A stretch of 63,904 nt of DNA, filler included, from Caldilineae bacterium (GTDB lineage Bacteria > Chloroflexota > Anaerolineae > DTLA01), in assembly GCA_037446815.1 (NCBI GenBank). It is 6 parts of 6 records of this genome, joined end to end, with 100 filler letters (N's around TTAATTAATTAA, not from the genome) between each part and the next. Parts side by side here need not be neighbours in the genome. Positions count along the whole stretch, not along the records: positions 12,311 to 24,484 come from JBBIHX010000080.1; 5 more parts are not named here. The stretch is one strand, 5' to 3'. Numbering within the stretch: the first letter of the stretch is position 1; each line of letters opens with the position of its first letter. Positions 12,211 through 61,435 of this stretch are shown piece by piece. Both the position numbers and the translations under genes were made by a program. The notes beneath the pieces are model-generated. The model was not told the origin of the DNA. It ran no database searches and saw nothing but the letters and a program-made list of their open reading frames with translations.

Positions 12211-12310
12211 NNNNNNNNNNNNNNNNNNNNNNNNNNNNNNNNNNNNNNNNNNNNTTAATTAATTAANNNNNNNNNNNNNNNNNNNNNNNNNNNNNNNNNN
12301 NNNNNNNNNN
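12211..12310. other. Artificial contig linker (N44-TTAATTAATTAA-N44)
   Basis: Six-frame stop linker flanked by Ns. Confidence 0.98.
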
Positions 12311-12372
12311 CGCCTCACAAATCCAGTATACGGGAGAGCTGCTCGTGTGTATGTGACTTTGGTCACCACAAA

Positions 12373-12407
12373 AACGTGCGACGCATCTCGCAGGTGCGTC
12401 GCACGTT
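12373..12407. repeat. Short palindromic repeat
   Basis: AACGTGCGACGCA-tctcgcagg-TGCGTCGCACGTT; second copy near 56542-56575. Confidence 0.7.
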
Positions 12408-12477
12408 TCTCGGTTCCGAATGCTTTTGGAATGCTGAAGCCGCGCGTCAGCATTCCAAGACTCCGTTCGCGGTCGGG

Positions 12478-14124
12478 CTATGCCTCGGCGAGGGCCGCGG
12501 CCGGTTTGCGCTCCAGCCACCGCTCCGGCACCACCAGGCTCAGGACGTTCCTCCAGCCCAGCGTGGCGATGACGTTGATGAGGAAGGCCAGGAATCCCAG
12601 CGCGATGAGAATGCCGCCGACGATGGCGAGGGTCTCGTTGGTCTGGTAAGGGCTGCCTTCGGGGTACAGGGTGCGGCGGAGCATCCCGCGCGCGCCGGCC
12701 ATCCCCATCACGTAGGCCATCCCCACCGAGCCAATCATCCACAGCCAGAAGTGGGCGTTCACCAGCGCGGCGCTCTTGATTTGCAGATTCGTGAGCATGG
12801 GAATCAGCGCGTACACAACGGCGAACAGGAGCATCGCCAGGCCGGTCAGCAGGAAGGTGTGCGCGTGCAGCGACACGACCCATTGGGTGTTGTGGAACAC
12901 CACGTTCAGGCCCACGTTGGCCTGAATCAGCCCCGCCGCGCCGCCCATGATGAACCCGAACATGGAGCCGAGGACGAACTTCAGCGGCGGCGAGAACTTG
13001 ACCGGACGCGCCAGCCAGATGGTCATCAGCGTGGCGAACAGCGTCAGGCCCATGGTGAAGAACTCGCCCCAGGTGATGAACTGGCCCGACAGGAGCCGCA
13101 TCCACAGCGGCTGGCTCTGATCGCCCAGCAGGTGGTGGCTCCACACGCCCAGCGATACCAGCAGGTCCACCATGATGACCGTTTTCACCACGTTCTCGCC
13201 GAAGAGTTTGCGCCCCACCAGCAACGGCACCAGCAGGTACCACACGCCCGCCGTGTACATCAGCACGTTGCCGTCGGCCACCATGTCCAGCCCCCACCAG
13301 AACCAGTTCTTGTAGATGAGCGGGTCAATGGCGGTGGGGTTCAGCGGTGATTTCAGCAGCGCCGCGATGCCGTAGACCAGAATCAGCGCACCTGCCGTGA
13401 GCAAGACGATGGCGTTGATGACGGTGTCAATGGAGCCGCGCGCCACCGCCACGATGAACACGGGCAGGCCGTTGTAGTCCAGGTTGGGAGCGGCCTTGTC
13501 CTCCTTGCCCAGCCGCTTCATCAGGCGCGAGATGCCAAAGGCCGCCCGCAGGAACGCGCCGAGACTGTAGGAGCCGGGATTGCTCTTGCTCAATACGGTG
13601 CTGAAGGTGTTGTACGAGAACAAGAGGATGTTGACCATGATGATGGCCGCGCCCACGGTGAAGGCGATGCTGCCGATGAGCGGCACGCGGTCATAGGACA
13701 CGGGCAGCGGCCAGTACAGCGTGTACAGCGAGTTGAACAGACCGAAGAACCCCGCGGCCCAGCACGTCATCACGCCGACAATCTGCGCCCAGAAGTTGAA
13801 GACCAGCAGTCGCTTGTGGCGCACTTCCTTGCCCAGCAGGTGCGGCACCAGGAAGTAGAACGCGCCGAACACGAGCATGTAGGCGAAGCCGTAGATGCCC
13901 ACAATGGGGTGTGCCGTGAGCATGGCGTAATACAGTTCGGCGGAGGTAACCTCGCGCCCCACCGGCCGCAGCGCCATGAGCGCCTGCTCCATCCCGTGCA
14001 GCGCGTCGGGGTCGGCCAACTGGATGCGCATGAGAATGCCCTCAAAACCGGACAGGGCCAGGAAAAGCAGGCCCACGACTGCAAATCGTAGCGTCCATTT
14101 GGTTTGCCAGTTGAGAGTCGTCAT
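12478..14124 (-). CDS. Heme-copper oxidoreductase subunit I, atypical (gNOR-like putative nitric oxide reductase)
   Basis: Polytopic membrane protein; helix-II His (MLTAHP), helix-VII HH (VWSHH), helix-X HxH (LHAHT), GMLRR; helix VI reads WFWWGLDMVADGNVL with no His or Tyr. Confidence 0.85.
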   Translation of the reverse strand: MTTLNWQTKWTLRFAVVGLLFLALSGFEGILMRIQLADPDALHGMEQALMALRPVGREVTSAELYYAMLTAHPIVGIYGFAYMLVFGAFYFLVPHLLGKEVRHKRLLVFNFWAQIVGVMTCWAAGFFGLFNSLYTLYWPLPVSYDRVPLIGSIAFTVGAAIIMVNILLFSYNTFSTVLSKSNPGSYSLGAFLRAAFGISRLMKRLGKEDKAAPNLDYNGLPVFIVAVARGSIDTVINAIVLLTAGALILVYGIAALLKSPLNPTAIDPLIYKNWFWWGLDMVADGNVLMYTAGVWYLLVPLLVGRKLFGENVVKTVIMVDLLVSLGVWSHHLLGDQSQPLWMRLLSGQFITWGEFFTMGLTLFATLMTIWLARPVKFSPPLKFVLGSMFGFIMGGAAGLIQANVGLNVVFHNTQWVVSLHAHTFLLTGLAMLLFAVVYALIPMLTNLQIKSAALVNAHFWLWMIGSVGMAYVMGMAGARGMLRRTLYPEGSPYQTNETLAIVGGILIALGFLAFLINVIATLGWRNVLSLVVPERWLERKPAAALAEA

Positions 14125-14149
14125 AAGTCATCGCTCCTTGTAGGATTGC

Positions 14150-14232
14150 CGTTGGCTGTCGGCAGTCAGCGGCCAGATGGAGTTGCAAGCCGAACGCTGA
14201 TGGCTGAATGCAGGTCGCTGACCGCTAGAGCC
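14150..14232. repeat. Heptamer-periodic inverted repeat (CAGnCAn / GCTGAnn)
   Basis: GGCAGTCAGCGGCCAG...GCTGATGGCTGA...GCTGACCGCT; similar tract at 45325-45410. Confidence 0.55.
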
Positions 14233-14235
14233 AGC

Positions 14236-14658
14236 CTACGGCGTTACGCGAATCGCATTGGGAACGTACATCTCCGAATGGCGCGGGCCCGAGTATTCCG
14301 TGGAGCGGACGTCGTACACGCCTGGCGTGTCAAATCGCCACGTGATCTTATTCTCGTAGCCCGGCAGGACCTGCATCTGGAACACCATGGTGCCATCCGG
14401 GCGGAAGACGCCGAACCCGTACGTTACGTCCTTGGATGTGGCGACGAACTGCACAAACTCGTTGACCTTGACCTGGACGCCGCCCTGTGGAAGCCGAATC
14501 TGGTAGTCCTCAAACTCCACGGGAACGACGCGGTCGGGCGTCGGGCGCGCCCAAAGGAGCCATTGCTGCCAGGGGACCAGGGGCGACAACGTGATGACGT
14601 TGACGAGCACGAAGACGCCCACGAGCACAAACAGCCAGTTTCGTTCTCGCTTGTCCAT
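14236..14658 (-). CDS. Heme-copper oxidoreductase subunit II (cupredoxin fold, CuA ligands lost)
   Basis: One N-terminal TM helix; TSKDVTYGFGV and YDVRSTEYSGPRHSEM align with DVxHxF and CxExCGxxHxxM; AGGAGG RBS. Confidence 0.85.
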   Translation of the reverse strand: MDKRERNWLFVLVGVFVLVNVITLSPLVPWQQWLLWARPTPDRVVPVEFEDYQIRLPQGGVQVKVNEFVQFVATSKDVTYGFGVFRPDGTMVFQMQVLPGYENKITWRFDTPGVYDVRSTEYSGPRHSEMYVPNAIRVTP

Positions 14659-14660
14659 CT

Positions 14661-14765
14661 TCACCCTCCTTTCTCCTTGACTTTCCAGGCGAAGAGCAGC
14701 ATGAAGAGGATGACCAGAACCAGGAACGCCGTGTAAGCCCACCAGATGACATCCGTTGCGTACAT
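14661..14765 (-). CDS. 34-aa single-TM protein, putative subunit IIa-like
   Basis: Manually translated MYATDVIWWAYTAFLVLVILFMLLFAWKVKEKGG*; AAGGAGGGAGG RBS; 3' end contains the subunit II RBS. Confidence 0.8.
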   Translation of the reverse strand: MYATDVIWWAYTAFLVLVILFMLLFAWKVKEKGG

Positions 14766-14866
14766 AGCCTCCCTCCTTGCGGGTTTCTGACCGGGGCATA
14801 TGTGTGCAGGGCGATGGTGCAATACGTGTCTTCAAGAGTAGTGTAACGAGGCCGCAATTCGCCGTA

Positions 14867-14882
14867 TGTAACTTTTGTCGCA
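14867..14882. promoter_or_regulatory. Candidate Crp/Fnr-family operator
   Basis: TGTAAC-TTTT-GTCGCA imperfect palindrome with Crp geometry (TGTnA-N6-TCnCA), ~100 bp upstream of the oxidase operon. Confidence 0.4.
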
Positions 14883-15037
14883 AATGGCCAACGAATTCTC
14901 GACCACGGCACCGGCGGCCGATGCCGTGAACGCAGGGGCGCGAAGGGTCTCGGCGGTGAGACGCCTCGCAGGGCTTGGCGGCAGCGGGGCTTCTCACAGC
15001 ATATTGTGAGAATTCCTAACAAGGGCGCTGAAGGGTC

Positions 15038-15076
15038 TTGACTTTCTGCCCTACACGTACTATAATACACGTGTAG
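15038..15076 (+). promoter_or_regulatory. Sigma70 promoter with overlapping inverted repeat
   Basis: TTGACT-17-TATAAT (15038-15066); CTACACGT-N10-ACGTGTAG (15051-15076) brackets the -10 box. Confidence 0.75.
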
Positions 15077-15252
15077 AGATCCTTCAACCCTTGTGCCTCA
15101 TCTGGTCAACACTCATGGCACCTCGGCGACGCTCGGCGAGCGAAAGGAGGGTGCTGCGGCGTTTCATCCTGCGGTCATCATTCGCGCTCCGACAAGTCCC
15201 TAGGCCCTTGCGCCGTTGATTGCCGGGAGCGCCTTTGCAAGGAGTGAAAACA

Positions 15253-16407
15253 ATGAGACTTTGGCGTGATCCACAAAAGGCCCTCGTCATGGTCGCAGCG
15301 GGGATACTCCTGCTCCTCCTGGGCTGCGGCTTCACCGGCGATGGCACGTCGCAGCGCGCCACGCCCCAGCCCACAACGCCGCCGCTGGTGGTGGCCACCG
15401 CCACGCCCCTGCCCCAGCAGGACTACGAGGCGTTGGAACTGGAAGAGCGCCTGCTGGTCAACCTGTTCCAGCGGGTGGGCCCGTCGGTCGTGCACATCCA
15501 GGTAACGACGGCGACCGGCTCCGGTTCGGGTTCGGGCTTCTTCTACGATGCCGACGGCCACATCGTTACCAACAATCACGTCGTGGAGGATGCGGAGACC
15601 ATCCGCGTGGTGCTGGCCGACGGCACGACGGTGCCCGCCGAGGTGGTGGGGACCGATCCCGATGCCGACCTGGCGGTCATCGTGGTGGACGCGCCCGCGG
15701 CGCTCGTGGTGCCCGCCGAACTGGGCGATTCGGGCAAAGTCCAGGTGGGGCAATGGGCCATCGCCATCGGCAACCCGTTCGGGCTGGAACGCACGGTTAC
15801 TCGCGGCATCATCAGCGCCTTGGGGAGGGTTTTTCCCCAGGAGAGCGGGTTCTCCATCGCCAACCTGATTCAGACCGATGCCGCCATCAATCCGGGCAAC
15901 TCCGGCGGGCCGCTGCTGGACTTGCGGGGCCGCGTCATCGGGGTCAACACCATGATTATCTCGGAGACCGGCGCGTCGGCGGGCCTGGGGTTTGCCATTC
16001 CCGTGAACATCGTCAAGAAGGTGGTGCCCGCGCTCATCCGGGACGGCTTCTACGCGCACCCGTGGCTGGGCATCCGCGGGTACACCATCACGCCTGAACT
16101 GGTGGAGGCGCTGAGCCTGCCGGTGGACCGCGGCGCGCTGGTGGGCGAAGTAACATCCGGCGGCCCGGCCGCGAAGGCGGGGCTTCGCGGGGGGCGGCGC
16201 ACCGTGCGCATCCCGGGCTACGTGGAGCCGGTGCAGGCCGGCGGCGACATCATCGTGAGCATAGACGGCACCCGCGTAACCGGCATGGATTCGCTCATCA
16301 GTTACCTGGATTTCACCGAGGCCGGGCAAGTGGTGGTGCTGGACGTGATTCGCGGGACGGAGCGGCTGTCCATCCAGGTAACCCTGGGGCAGCGTCCGCG
16401 CGACTAA
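15253..16407 (+). CDS. htrA: HtrA/DegP-family serine protease with PDZ domain, lipoprotein
   Basis: LLLLGC lipobox-like; [27 protein letters not shown]; one PDZ domain. Confidence 0.9.
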
Positions 16408-16421
16408 TGGGGAGGCTTGGC

Positions 16422-16763
16422 GTGAGCGACAGTCCGTCGCCTCAGGAACCTTGCTACGTCATCAGCGTTGCAGCGAAAATGGTGGGCGTGCACCCTCAGA
16501 CGCTCCGCTACTACGAGAGCCTGGGGCTTATCAAGCCGTGCCGCTCGCCGGGGAACAGGCGGCTGTACTCGCCCAGCGACATTGAACGATTGCGGCAGAT
16601 TCAGCGTCTTACGGATGAACTAGGCGTCAACCTTGCGGGGGTGGAAACCATCCTCTCGCTTATGGACCAGGTAGCGCGGATGAAGGCAGAGATGGAGGCT
16701 CTGCAGAGGCGCTTTGAACGCGAGATCGCCCTGCTCAAGGGCAAGTCGCAGGGTAGCGAATAG
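16422..16763 (+). CDS. hspR: HspR-like MerR-family heat-shock regulator
   Basis: YVISVAAKMVGVHPQTLRYYE, GNRRLYS, ELGVNLAGVE; GTG after GGAGG (alternative ATG 16407). Confidence 0.85.
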   Translation: MSDSPSPQEPCYVISVAAKMVGVHPQTLRYYESLGLIKPCRSPGNRRLYSPSDIERLRQIQRLTDELGVNLAGVETILSLMDQVARMKAEMEALQRRFEREIALLKGKSQGSE

Positions 16764-16800
16764 GCGGATTGGAATCGGATCATGCAGACAGGAGGACGAA

Positions 16801-17892
16801 ATGTTTGACGAAAAGGATGTTCGTGAACTGGCTGCCTTCCATGCAGATGGAGCCGCGGTGTTGAGCCTGTACCTGAGCACAGATCCTTCCCGCCACATCA
16901 AGGACGAAACGAGATTGAACCTGAGAAGCATGCTGAAGCAAGCGGTGGCGCTGGGCGCGGCCCAGTCCGATGCAGACCGCATGGAGCGTTTCGTGGATTT
17001 GGAATACGACTGGCAAGCCAAAGGGCTGGCGATGTTCTCCTGCCAGGAGGGCGATTTCTGGCGCGCCTACCCGTTGAGCGTGCCCATCAGCAACCACGTC
17101 TTCGTGGCCGACCGGCCCTATGTGAAGCCGTTGAGCGACATCCTGGACGAGTACGGCAAGTTCGCCGTCGCTCTGATTGACCAAGAGGGGACCCGAATCG
17201 TTCTGTACCATTTGGGCGTTGTGGAGGACACGGCGGGCACATTCGGCGCCGAGTTGAAGCGGCACAAGCAGGGCGGCTGGGCGGCCCAGCGATTGCAGCG
17301 CCGCGAGGACGCCAAAGCCCACCAGAACCTCAAGGACGCCGTCGCGCTTGTCAAGGACTTCTGCAACAAGCATCAGTGCAAACGCCTCATCGTGGGCGGG
17401 CAGGACGAAACCGTGTCAAAGTTTCTGGCCATGCTGCCCAAAGCCCTCCGCGATAGCGTCATCGGCACCATGCCTATAGACATCACGGCGTCGGAGAGCG
17501 AGGCGTTGGAGCGGGCCCAGGACTTGCTGGAGCGGGCCGAGCGGGAGCGGGAGGCTTCCCTCGTGCAGCAGATGATCACAGCGGCGACCAAGGGCGGGCC
17601 GGGCGCCATCGGCCTGGCTGATACCCTGACCGCGCTGCAAGAGGAGCGCGTCCACGTCCTGCTCGTGGAGGAGGGGTTCCAGGCCACCGCGTACCGATGC
17701 GATCACTGTGGCTACATTGGGGCGCAGAAGACCAAAACGTGCGTATACTGCGGCGGGCCTATGGTTGCCGTCAAGGACGCCGTGGATGCCATCGTCCGCC
17801 GCGCCATTCAGCGAGGCGTAGAAGTGGAATTCGTGCAGGGGAACGACGATTTGAAACGCGCGGGGCAAATCGGCGCGATTCTTCGGTACTGA
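16801..17892 (+). CDS. Bacterial archaeo-eukaryotic release factor (aRF1/eRF1/Vms1-like, baeRF-type) protein
   Basis: LSLYL N-domain, RPYVKPL, HKQGGWAAQRLQR at the GGQ-loop position, CxxC..CxxC zinc ribbon, terminal IGAILRY. Confidence 0.8.
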   Translation: MFDEKDVRELAAFHADGAAVLSLYLSTDPSRHIKDETRLNLRSMLKQAVALGAAQSDADRMERFVDLEYDWQAKGLAMFSCQEGDFWRAYPLSVPISNHVFVADRPYVKPLSDILDEYGKFAVALIDQEGTRIVLYHLGVVEDTAGTFGAELKRHKQGGWAAQRLQRREDAKAHQNLKDAVALVKDFCNKHQCKRLIVGGQDETVSKFLAMLPKALRDSVIGTMPIDITASESEALERAQDLLERAEREREASLVQQMITAATKGGPGAIGLADTLTALQEERVHVLLVEEGFQATAYRCDHCGYIGAQKTKTCVYCGGPMVAVKDAVDAIVRRAIQRGVEVEFVQGNDDLKRAGQIGAILRY

Positions 17893-17934
17893 ACCTGCAC
17901 CTACGGCCGGTACACGCCGGCGAGGTGAGACTCT

Positions 17935-20412
17935 ATGATGCGATTTGATCGGTTTACAGAGCGCGCGCAGGATGCAGCCATGCGCGCCTACGAGATTCTG
18001 CAGCGCTACGGCCACACGCAGGTGGATACCGAGCACCTGCTCCTGGCGCTGATAGAGCAGCCAGGGGGCGTCATTCCGCAAATCCTGGACAAACTGGGCG
18101 TGGACGCCGACGCGCTGAAGCAGCGCCTGGAGGCCGCGTTGCGCGCCACGCCCCGCAGCGCGGGGTTCGGCAGCACCATGGCCGGCCAGATGTTCATCAC
18201 GCCGCGCCTCAAGCATGTGGTGGACACCGCCAACGAAGAAGCCAATCGCCTGAAGGATGACTACATCTCCACCGAGCACCTGTTCCTCGCCATTCTCGCC
18301 GAGCGGGGGGCGCCCGCCTCCCGCTTGCTGGAGGAGATGGGGGTTTCGCGGGATCGGGTCATGGAGGCCATTGAGCAGGTGCGGGGCGGGCAGCGCGTTA
18401 CATCCCCCCAGGCCGAGACCCGCTACCGGACGCTGGAGCGGTACACGCGCGACCTGACCCAACTGGCCCGCGAAGGCAAACTGGACCCCGTCATCGGCCG
18501 GGACAAGGAGATCATGCGGGTCATGCAGATCCTGTCGCGCCGCACCAAGAACAACCCCGTGCTCATCGGCGAGGCGGGCGTGGGCAAGACCGCCATCGTG
18601 GAGGGCCTGGCGCAGAAGATCGTGCAGGACGACGTGCCCGAAATCCTCATGGGCAAGCGCGTCCTCGCCCTGGACCTGGGCGCGATGGTGGCGGGCACGC
18701 GCTTCCGCGGCGAGTTTGAGGAGCGGCTGAAGACGGCCATAGAGGAGATTCAGCGCGCCCAGGGCGAGATCATCCTCTTCATTGACGAACTGCACACCGT
18801 GGTCGGGGCAGGGGCCGCCATGGGCGCCATGGACGCGTCCAACATGCTGAAACCTGCCCTGGCCAGGGGCGAACTCCAGTGCGTGGGCGCTACGACGCTG
18901 GATGAGTACCGCCGCTACATTGAGAAAGACGCCGCCCTGGAGCGCCGCTTCGCGCCGGTGTACGTGGACGAGCCGTCGGTGGAGGAGACCATCCAGATGC
19001 TGCGGGGCGTGCGCGACCGCTACGAGGCGCATCACAAGGTGCGCTTCTCCGACGAGGCCCTGGTCGCGGCGGCGCGCCTGTCCAAACGCTACGTAACCGA
19101 CCGTCACCTGCCCGACAAGGCCATTGACCTCATAGACGAGGCGGCATCCAAGTTGCGCATGGCGATTCACAGCATGCCCGCCGAACTCAAGGAGAAGCGC
19201 GCCGCCATCCACAAACTGGCGGCGGAAGAGGAAGCGGCCTGGCAGCGGCGGGACTACGAGAAGGCCGCCGTCCATCGCGCCGAACGCCTGCGGCTGGAAC
19301 AGGAGTTTAACGCGGCCCGCGAAGCCTGGCAGCGCGAGAAGAACATTGACGAAGTGGTGGACGTGCAGGACATCGCCGAGGTGGTGGCCACCTGGACCGG
19401 CATCCCCGTTACGGCGCTCCTGGAGACCGAGGCCGAGCGCCTCGTCCACATGGAGGAGCGCCTCCACGAGCGCATCGTGGGCCAGGATGAGGCCATCCGC
19501 GCCGTGTCCAACGCCATTCGGCGGGCGCGGTCCGGCCTGAAAGACCCCCGCCGCCCCATCGGCTCGTTCATCTTCCTCGGCTCGTCGGGCGTCGGCAAGA
19601 CTGAATTGGCCAAGGCGCTGGCCTGGTTCCTGTTTGACGACGAAGAGGCCCTCGTCCGCGTGGACATGAGCGAATACCGCGAGCGGCACACCGTCTCCCG
19701 CCTCATCGGCGCGCCGCCCGGCTATGTGGGCTACGAGGAGGGCGGACAACTGACCGAAGCCGTCCGCCGCAGGCCCTACCAGGTGGTGCTCTTTGACGAG
19801 ATAGAGAAGGCCCACCCCGAGGTCTGGAACGCCCTGCTGCAAATCCTGGAGGATGGCCGCTTGACCGATGGCCAGGGCCACACGGTGGACTTCCGCAATA
19901 CGGTGGTCATCATGACCTCCAACATCGGCACGCAGTACACGCGCAAGGGCGGCACCCTGGGCTTCCGCGCGGGCGATGCGCGGGACGCCGAGGAGCGCGC
20001 CGCGCATGAGGCCATTGAGCGCGGCCTGCGCGAGACCTTCCGCCCCGAGTTTCTGAACCGCGTGGACGAGATTATCATCTTCCACACCCTGACTCTGGAC
20101 CAGGTCAAGCAGATCGTTGACCTCCAAATGCGGGAGATCCGCGAGCGGCTGCGGGAGCAGGGCGTGGAGGTGGAACTGACCGAAGCTGCACGCGACTGGC
20201 TTGCGCGGGAGGGCTACGACCCCAACTTCGGCGCGCGCCCACTGCGCCGCGCGCTGCAGAAGCATGTGGAGAACGCCCTCGCCTTGCGCCTGCTGAGCGG
20301 CGAGTTCCATGAAGGCGATGTCATCATCGTGGACGCGGCGGACGCGGGCATCCGCTTCTACCGCAAGCAGAGCGTGGAACTGCCGTCCGATTCCGTCGCC
20401 GCGACTTCGTGA
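17935..20412 (+). CDS. clpC: ATP-dependent Clp protease ATPase subunit (ClpC/ClpB family)
   Basis: Clp N repeats, [14 protein letters not shown], short coiled-coil middle domain, [21 protein letters not shown] loop, GARPLRR. Confidence 0.85.
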
Positions 20413-24484: not shown

Positions 24485-24584
24485 NNNNNNNNNNNNNNNN
24501 NNNNNNNNNNNNNNNNNNNNNNNNNNNNTTAATTAATTAANNNNNNNNNNNNNNNNNNNNNNNNNNNNNNNNNNNNNNNNNNNN
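24485..24584. other. Artificial contig linker
   Basis: N44-TTAATTAATTAA-N44. Confidence 0.98.
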
Positions 24585-30228: not shown

Positions 30229-30378
30229 GAGTCGGTCTCATCTTGTGTTGGTGAACCGTAGGCGCACTGTCCTCGTGTGTCGTTGCGAGCGAAGCGAAGC
30301 AACCCCACGCTCCAGGGATTGCTTCGGGCGCTCCGCGCCCTCGCAATGACAAACACCAACAGACTTTGGAACCGAATC
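30229..30378. repeat. ~150-bp MITE/REP-like element (family A), inverted copy
   Basis: Reverse complement closely matches 1575-1724 end to end. Confidence 0.85.
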
Positions 30379-36650: not shown

Positions 36651-36855
36651 GATTCGGCTCCAAAGTCTGTTGGCATCTACCGTCATTCTGAGCGGCNNNN
36701 NNNNNNNNNNNNNNNNNNNNNNNNNNNNNNNNNNNNNNNNTTAATTAATTAANNNNNNNNNNNNNNNNNNNNNNNNNNNNNNNNNNNNNNNNNNNNTGCT
36801 TCGGGCGCTCCGCGCCCTCGCAATGACAAATACCAACAGACTTTGGAACCGCATC
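36651..36855. repeat. Family A/B repeat ends flanking the contig linker (36697-36796)
   Basis: GATTCGGCTCCAAAGTCTGTTGG...GTCATTCTGAGC before the linker; family-A half after it. Confidence 0.75.
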
Positions 36856-48579: not shown

Positions 48580-48670
48580 GGTCCTTGCTACCCGCCTGCA
48601 TGCGGCATTTGTGCCGCATTGCACAAGGAGTATACCACAAGGGCGGCTTGAACGCAATGGCGACGCAGCC

Positions 48671-49047
48671 GATTCGGTTCCAAAGACTGTTGGTACTGTC
48701 ATTGCGAGGGCGCACAGCGCCCGAAGCAACCCCTGAGAACTGTCATTCCGAGCGGCGGAGCCGCGAAGAATCTCGCTGACCGAGATGCTTCGCCTTCGGC
48801 GCAGCATGACACAATGAGGCCGTCATTCTGAGCGGCGGAGCCGCGAAGAATCTCGCCCCTCACCCCAGCCCTCTCCCGAAGGGCGAGGGCTTTNNNNNNN
48901 NNNNNNNNNNNNNNNNNNNNNNNNNNNNNNNNNNNNNTTAATTAATTAANNNNNNNNNNNNNNNNNNNNNNNNNNNNNNNNNNNNNNNNNNNNTCGGGCG
49001 CTCCGCGCCCTCGCAATGACAAATACCAACAGACTTTGGAACCGACT
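48671..49047. repeat. Repeat cluster (families A, B and CCCTC-type) around the contig linker (48894-48993)
   Basis: GATTCGGTTCCAAAG..GTCATTGCGAGGGCGC, two GTCATTCYGAGCGGCGGAGCCGCGAAGAATCTC, CCCTCACCCCAGCCCTCTCCC. Confidence 0.8.
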
Positions 49048-49194
49048 CGGGACAAACTCTCACTGCAGAGAACATAGAGACCGCAGAGGGATTGAAAGAA
49101 TCAGTGCATCATCCCTTTGCTCAGTCTGCGGCCCGATTCCCCCTCTGTGGTCTCCGGGGTCTCTGCGGTGAAACCATCTTGTAGCGAGGCAGAC

Positions 49195-61134: not shown

Positions 61135-61340
61135 TCTGTCATTCTGAGCGGCGAAGCCGCGAAGAATCTCGCGCACCGATACCCGTCGCTCCGCTCAGGG
61201 TGACAGGACGGACCGGCATTCCCCCAAGGGCTTCTCCCCTCAGCGCGCCGCCCTGCTCCCTCGCCCGCACGGGAGAGGGCTGGGGTGAGGGCCACGCCCC
61301 CTCGCCCTTCGGGAGAGGGCTGGGGTGAGGGCCACGCCCA
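61135..61340. repeat. Family-B and CCCTC/GGGAGAGGG repeats at contig start
   Basis: GTCATTCTGAGCGGCGAAGCCGCGAAGAATCTC; two GGGAGAGGGCTGGGGTGAGGG. Confidence 0.75.
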
Positions 61341-61435
61341 CGCCGACATTGCTTCCGTCGTTCCGCGCCCCCGCTATGCCGGTCGCCAACAACGTTGGGG
61401 CCGCGTTGCGCCCCTTGATAGGGCACGTCGCCGTC

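Follow-up and report, generated by a model that had tools for sequence, protein, structure and literature searches.

A gNOR-family operon with a split, CuA-less subunit II in a Caldilineae bacterium, probably serving nitric oxide removal outside denitrification

What does a heme-copper oxidoreductase (HCO) do once an aspartate stands where one of its metal-ligand histidines is expected, and in what kind of metabolism does it work? The question is raised by a gene in a 63,904-nucleotide stretch of DNA (the whole of which we call the window) from an uncultured Caldilineae bacterium of the Chloroflexota (class Anaerolineae; assembly GCA_037446815.1). The window consists of parts of about 12.2 kb joined by N-runs around TTAATTAATTAA (12211-12310 and near 24529, 36741, 48938 and 61062), and since these joints are artificial, genes on the two sides of a joint are not genomic neighbours. 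We find that the gene belongs to a three-gene operon of the gNOR family that lacks CuA, and we believe, with a probability of roughly 0.65, that this operon serves the menaquinol-fed removal of nitric oxide (NO) and not denitrification. The gene itself is the following:

12478..14124, minus strand: gNOR subunit I, 548 amino acids (aa), with heme ligands H72, H420 and H422 and putative metal-site residues D280, D284, H330 and H331.

Subunit I has an AAGGAG ribosome-binding site about 8-10 nt 5' of its ATG and is the sole COX1-type gene of the genome. Residues 11-505 match Pfam COX1 with an E-value of 8.6e-64, and the best Foldseek matches of its AlphaFold model (predicted local distance difference test, pLDDT, 82.1; predicted template-modelling score, pTM, 0.85) are subunit I of aa3, bo3 and ba3 oxidases, with template-modelling (TM) scores of 0.68-0.77. 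Classification with hidden Markov models gave this COX1 match, with every NCBIfam oxidase equivalog far under its cut-off (CtaD 122 vs 671 bits; ccoN, TIGR00780, 58.7 vs 583 bits). A reading made from the sequence only had counted five of the six canonical His in the motifs TAHP, WSHH and LHAH, and these were found starting at residues 70 (H72), 328 (H330/H331) and 419 (H420/H422), respectively. The same reading had noted a helix VI with neither a His nor the cross-linking Tyr of the oxygen reductases. Indeed, this helix, which reads WWGLDMVADG from residue 276, contains no His and, by alignment, no Tyr at the cross-link position, and MAFFT places D280 and D284 at the two sites.

The exact register of helix VI deserves attention. 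In a MAFFT alignment of 44 sequences, D280 and D284 fall in the columns of the metal-ligand His and the cross-link Tyr, respectively, and W276 in that of the conserved Trp that precedes the His by four residues. Pairwise and profile alignments made with HMMER against A-family oxidases are shifted by one residue, placing Leu279 opposite the His and Asp280 opposite the Pro that follows it; the register is one derived from alignments. In the nearest His-bearing relative, the cluster representative P0174, the segment reads WWGLHSYVNQ and its only helix-VI His falls at the position of D280. Furthermore, W276, D280, D284, L288, A292 and Y296 follow each other at four-residue steps, as expected for one face of a helix. 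Because of the His of P0174 and this spacing we prefer the MAFFT register, and we take D280 to occupy the position of the helix-VI metal-ligand His and D284 that of the cross-link Tyr.

The two Asp residues are a stable property of a large family. H72, D280, D284, H330, H331, H420, H422, R483 and R484 are unchanged across 27 sequences sharing 42-79% identity with the query, as are W276, W277, G278, L279, A283 and G285. A protein database search returned 2979 matches to subunit I, the best 120 of which are 73-96% identical; when one representative was taken per 50% cluster, the motif occurred in only two other full-length clusters, P0121 (54% identity) and P0123 (43%), and the next full-length representatives, at about 30% identity and an E-value of about 1e-28, carry His-Tyr or His-Asn sites. 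Scanning species genomes yielded at least 555 relatives of subunit I, and the best 80 of these form the basis of all counts of loci, neighbours and motifs given here. They come from Anaerolineae, Thermoflexia, Caldilineae and Dehalococcoidia (62-96% identical), from Firestonebacteria (55%), from the archaeal Bathyarchaeia, Nitrososphaeria and Thermofilaceae (44-52%) and from Bacteroidota (42-45%). WWGLD[ML][VI]ADG was found in 77 of the 78 full-length open reading frames (ORFs); the sole miss, L059, is a fragment, and two further loci, L052 and L057, have no full ORF. As the motif is unchanged in 27 diverse sequences and in 77/78 ORFs, chance can be discarded as its origin.

In a tree of 58 sequences, from which seven truncated or misaligned representatives had been excluded beforehand (P0193, P0214, P0216, P0219, P0236, P0240 and P0260), all 27 Asp-Asp sequences fall on one branch with a Shimodaira-Hasegawa-like approximate likelihood ratio test (SH-aLRT) support of 100 and a stem of 0.7. 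The query lies inside this clade, nested with the homologues at loci L011 and L033 in its Chloroflexota part; the sequences compared do not include the gNORs of Methylomirabilis and Campylobacterota. The closest branch outside the clade joins P0174, with its His...Asn site, and P0235, and this sister grouping with the gNORs connects two long branches and may be unreliable. The sister branch shares the helix-VI length and the WWGL context with the gNORs and, in the WWGLH...N of P0174, resembles the sNOR/bNOR-type sites, in which the His is kept and an Asn occupies the Tyr position; these sites differ from the one described here in retaining the third His. In P0235 the two positions are occupied by Arg and Gln, and helix VII reads HWQH where the His-His pair is expected; this protein may represent another odd active site.

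The gNOR family reportedly goes back to papers by Hemp and Gennis in 2008 and by Sievert et al. in 2008. The gNOR passages of Murali et al. 2024 (PMC11214002) describe it as unique among HCO families in the replacement of an active-site His, namely by Asp, as having a cupredoxin subunit without CuA, as possibly quinol-oxidising and as 'proposed'; a table row on gNOR elsewhere (PMC8756737) shows a D for the Tyr and indicates that there is no proton channel. Our enzyme shares all four structural traits: Asp for the helix-VI His, Asp at the Tyr position, a cupredoxin subunit without CuA and no B-type proton channel. To connect the query with the published family we used two of its homologues, L033 (64% identical; from the record titled Dehalococcoides sp. 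JdFR-56) and L011 (76% identical; contig DUEL01000039.1), whose genomes contain exactly one PF00115 match each. In Dataset S8 of Murali et al. (PMC11214002), the entry JdFR-56 sp002011495 and both DUEL01 species are listed with GNOR=1 and no other NOR, the correspondence being by name and not by accession, and cluster look-ups gave no accession linking the query to the tree leaves of that study, which include gNORs of Anaerolineaceae and of Bacteroidetes. As the homologues in L033 and L011 are the only HCO genes of genomes that are scored as gNOR-only, these sequence comparisons place the query subunit I within the published gNOR clade. The assignment to a gNOR-type enzyme made by the sequence-only reading was thus borne out, by the Asp site, the loss of the Tyr, the CuA-less cupredoxin subunit and the homologues already counted as gNOR.

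Upstream of subunit I, on the same strand, lie two further genes, and the layout of the operon and its flanks is as follows:

14661..14765, minus strand: gene for a 34-aa single-helix peptide, with GGAGGGAGG upstream and its stop 2 nt 5' of the subunit II ATG.
14236..14658, minus strand: gNOR subunit II, 140 aa, made up of a single membrane helix and a CuA-less cupredoxin domain.
14125..14235, minus strand: spacer of 111 nt between subunit II and subunit I, carrying the ribosome-binding site of subunit I.
12311..12477, minus strand: 3' flank of 167 nt reaching the end of the contig; the 55 nt at that end are identical to those that open contig C165.

Of the neighbours of subunit I, subunit II alone is widely conserved (found at 63 of the 78 loci that have a full ORF), and it gives weak matches to the COX2 and CoxB models of Pfam and NCBIfam. 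In 63 of 64 aligned subunit II sequences the CuA ligands are replaced, the first His by Y80 and the two Cys by S119 and S123, each of these three residues occurring in 63/64; the stretch RSTEYSG is unchanged throughout this alignment and the Pro that follows it is present in 61/64. One homologue retains His, Cys and Cys at three CuA positions and may be a CuA-bearing intermediate.

The 34-aa ORF is preceded by a strong ribosome-binding site. A small hydrophobic ORF was detected in 27 of the 63 loci, one of them spurious (L026), leaving about 26 loci, all of Chloroflexota. Since the peptide aligns with helix 1 of the two-helix, 181-199-aa subunit II of other phyla, it would be the split-off first helix of that subunit, and we conclude from the sequences that subunit II is split here, resembling the arrangement in Thermus ba3 with its subunit IIa. 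Thermus subunit IIa is likewise 34 residues long. The likeness to the Thermus thermophilus enzyme extends to the twelve-helix subunit I, to a small one-helix subunit IIa beside a one-helix cupredoxin subunit II and to Y248, which corresponds to Y296 here. In contrast, ba3 has H233-Y237, CuA and a K-type channel, whereas the enzyme described here has D280 and D284, no CuA and replaced channel residues.

The spacer in front of subunit I measures 111 nt here vs 12 nt in the closest relative, L008 (94% identical). It is unique in the genome, matching only itself, and is not a repeat; it holds an imperfect inverted repeat, GGTCAGCG / CGCTGAC. A search for FNR boxes with at most two mismatches found none at 14659-15219, and the total for the window was not above chance.

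For gNOR we infer, as its most likely function on present sequence evidence, that of a quinol-fed NO-scavenging enzyme. A low-spin heme would be bound by H72 and H422 and a high-spin heme, possibly heme O, by H420, with a second metal beside the high-spin heme whose ligands would be two His together with one or two carboxylates. Such a ligand set would, by general coordination chemistry, favour non-heme iron over copper. Electrons would pass from menaquinol directly into subunit I: as there is neither CuA nor a cytochrome c domain, a trait shared with qNOR and with the A-family quinol oxidases (E. coli bo3 and B. subtilis aa3-600), quinol is the likely donor, and the cytochrome bd encoded in the genome suggests that a quinol pool exists. 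The best matches of the family profile in the PDB are indeed quinol oxidases (aa3-600, 1.8e-26; bo3, 1.5e-23), and the unchanged E28 falls in the column of D74 in aa3-600, the menaquinol oxidase of B. subtilis; however, the Arg partner of this quinol-site Asp is Leu here, and the active site is entirely different from that of the A-family enzymes. Neither qNOR nor cNOR gives a sequence match to gNOR at an E-value of 0.001 or better: PDB searches with the protein and with the family profile returned no cNOR or qNOR chain at this threshold and the Foldseek top 50 contained none, a distant kinship being possible. An assignment to cNOR or qNOR by their FeB ligands (three His and a Glu) was rejected on the absence of the third His.

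At the active site, two NO would be converted to N2O. Little or no energy would be conserved in the process because the B-type proton channel is not preserved; mapped via a ba3-like representative, S309, T312, T315 and Y244 of ba3 correspond to M358, T361 (T/S/A in the family), A364 and A292, and only Y248 has its counterpart in the unchanged Y296. Candidates for proton delivery are T351, E354 and T357, unchanged residues of helix VIII. As we found no nitrite reductase gene in the genome, the NO removed would come from outside, i.e. from neighbouring organisms or from chemistry, which would make the enzyme a scavenger and not a part of denitrification. The gNOR probably acts together with hemerythrin-like and DUF2249 genes downstream.

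The latter genes are separated from the operon by a gap in the assembly (3.19 Mb in 265 contigs, 93.6% complete). The operon lies at the very start of contig C80, whose opening 55 nt recur, as their reverse complement, at the start of C165. Past this overlap, C165 carries a short repeat, an ORF for a 137-aa lipoprotein-like protein, a hemerythrin-type gene and then a DUF2249 gene, and the hemerythrin-type gene is 89% identical to the one directly after gNOR in L008. By way of the 55-nt contig overlap, a hemerythrin-DUF2249 pair is thus probably located downstream of gNOR in this genome. More generally, a hemerythrin-type gene occurs within 4 kb of gNOR in 14 of the 80 loci, and directly 3' of it in the two closest relatives. 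An Rrf2 regulator is found directly 5' of gNOR in 19/80 loci, all of Bacteroidota, and a CRP/FNR regulator near it in nine. Heme O synthase, also encoded in this genome, adjoins gNOR in seven loci out of the 78 that have a full ORF, and among the conserved neighbours there is no CcoO- or CcoP-type gene.

Several observations weigh against the scavenging of NO as we propose it. In the genome, which is 93.6% complete, nirK, nirS, nosZ, narG and nrfA were not found. Of the 201 genomes sampled from the class, 28 carry gNOR (including all four other members of the genus). Over the whole sample nirK is above cut-off in 15 genomes, and in 0/28 of the gNOR bearers; nirS is present in full length in 14, one of them a gNOR bearer (G073), with a fragment in another gNOR genome. 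This rarity of nirK and nirS among the 28 provides no link to NO production. No purified or assayed gNOR is reported in the literature covered, where the papers from 2024 on that deal with gNOR as a nitric oxide reductase appear to be surveys. The Rrf2 regulators reach 47.9 bits vs a cut-off of 182 for NsrR and score better against SUF, RirA and IscR models, and an identity as NsrR is not assignable to them with scores so far under the cut-off. Sulfur-transport and rhodanese genes 3' of the operon in about 6-9 Bacteroidales loci fit other chemistry too. Finally, the C80-C165 join runs into a repeat, and iron as the second metal is our guess.

Part of this evidence would suit an enzyme whose two-His two-Asp site acts on another substrate, such as a sulfur compound, peroxide or peroxynitrite, or traces of O2, in which case 'NOR' would be a misnomer. 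The carriers are mostly anaerobes without nitrite reductases, sulfur-transport and rhodanese genes occur in the Bacteroidales loci just mentioned, a sulfite/nitrite-reductase-like gene lies 5' of the gNOR operon in L036, gNORs come mainly from sulfidic settings according to Murali et al. (PMC11214002), and their activity as NO reductases is 'proposed' and, in the literature covering it, unassayed. We nevertheless consider this explanation unlikely: as stated in the same study (PMC11214002), every biochemically tested HCO family without the Tyr (cNOR, qNOR, bNOR and eNOR) is an NO reductase, and a synthetic model of the gNOR site, cited there, reduces NO. Furthermore, hemerythrin-type, CRP/FNR and Rrf2 neighbours fit NO stress.

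A wider role is suggested by a second protein. Outside the window, the same genome encodes a cryptic 472-aa membrane protein (C2:45426-46844, L091:2427-3845), with homologues at L011:9741-11117 and five other loci. It has no Pfam or NCBIfam match, and the 120 relatives listed are all unnamed or called 'hypothetical protein', none with a Pfam domain. Its predicted fold is that of an oxidase/NOR subunit I, with Z-scores of 26.8 over 399 residues to cbb3 CcoN and 25.6 to NorB, and seven His are unchanged in seven aligned members of the family. Profile-profile comparison of the family with gNOR detected no homology (probability 1.4%), and the best PDB match of the family profile was an unrelated proteasome subunit at an E-value of 1.6. 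The gene stands directly before heme O synthase in its own genome, directly after gNOR in L011, L013, L019 and L043, and beside nirS in at least one other genome. The family is present in 16 of 28 gNOR-bearing genomes of the class vs 20 of 173 others, nine of these 20 having nirK or nirS. One could therefore imagine that gNOR, in anaerobes free of nitrite reductase, is not a denitrification enzyme, that NO may not be its only or even its main substrate, and that it forms the core of a membrane defence module in which the hemerythrin/DUF2249 pair, heme O synthase and the cryptic protein take part, the last of these being an undescribed second heme enzyme for nitrogen oxides. We regard this picture as speculative and decidedly unlikely as a whole.

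If not a scavenger, the enzyme could be a respiratory NO reductase of a denitrification pathway, comparable to cNOR and qNOR in denitrifiers. This is how Murali et al. treat gNOR (PMC11214002), and in part 4 of their Dataset S8, two of the eight Chloroflexota gNOR rows have nirK or nirS; in our class sample G073 combines gNOR with a full-length nirS. Against this stand the failure to find nirK, nirS, nosZ, narG or nrfA in the genome, the four other genomes of the genus, all with gNOR and none with nirK or nirS, the counts of 0/28 and 1/28 for nirK and nirS in the class sample, and the lack of the B-type proton channel. Our findings thus make a denitrification role very improbable here, and argue for the scavenging of NO supplied from outside.

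The public labels 'cbb3-type' and 'cytochrome c oxidase' would make the enzyme an oxygen reductase, which is hardly credible. Oxygen reductases are its best matches in sequence and in structure, and its fold is that of COX1, but the His-Tyr cofactor is absent, one metal-ligand His has gone, CuA is missing, the CtaD and ccoN scores (122 vs 671 and 59 vs 583) are far too low, no CcoO- or CcoP-type gene is a conserved neighbour, and cytochrome bd already serves O2 in this genome. Both candidate classes were rejected individually, the C family (cbb3) on the score of the CcoN equivalog and the B family on the joint absence of the His-Tyr cofactor (D280, D284), the third His and CuA.

Two other features of the surroundings were observed. 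Divergent from the gNOR operon, at 15220-20412, lie an HtrA-type protease, an HspR/MerR-like regulator and ClpB, the last two named from their translations and not from database matches; the order is the same in L007 and L008. The short GC-rich repeat at C165:56-285 (L088) is dispersed, with about 200-330 blastn matches across the 3.2-Mb assembly, often at contig ends, and probably breaks the assembly for that reason. Copies in the window lie near 1575-1728, 30239-30378, 36797-36855, 48669-49050 and 61256-61378, and Rfam gave no match to the repeat or to the repeat-rich stretch downstream of the operon.

Compared with what has been described for the gNOR family, the locus adds a subunit II gene that is split in Chloroflexota into a 34-aa peptide and a 140-aa protein, a carrier in which no nitrite reductases were found, the downstream hemerythrin/DUF2249 pair and the link to a cryptic protein of oxidase fold. 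The sequence-only reading had also warned that pipelines would mislabel such genes, and this is what we see: relatives are named 'cbb3-type cytochrome c oxidase subunit I' at NCBI and 'cytochrome c oxidase subunit 1' at JGI. Such labels would lead to aerobic respiration being wrongly ascribed to many genomes of Anaerolineae, Bacteroidales and archaea, and would also conceal what may be a source or a sink of NO and N2O. With a small three-gene operon, a genome of moderate size and an identified heme O synthase, the system described here would be a sensible choice for expressing a gNOR and analysing its metals for the first time. As the enzyme is common (at least 555 species genomes, 28/201 of the class) and occurs mostly without nitrite reductases, these results also bear on how gNOR is counted in surveys of denitrification.

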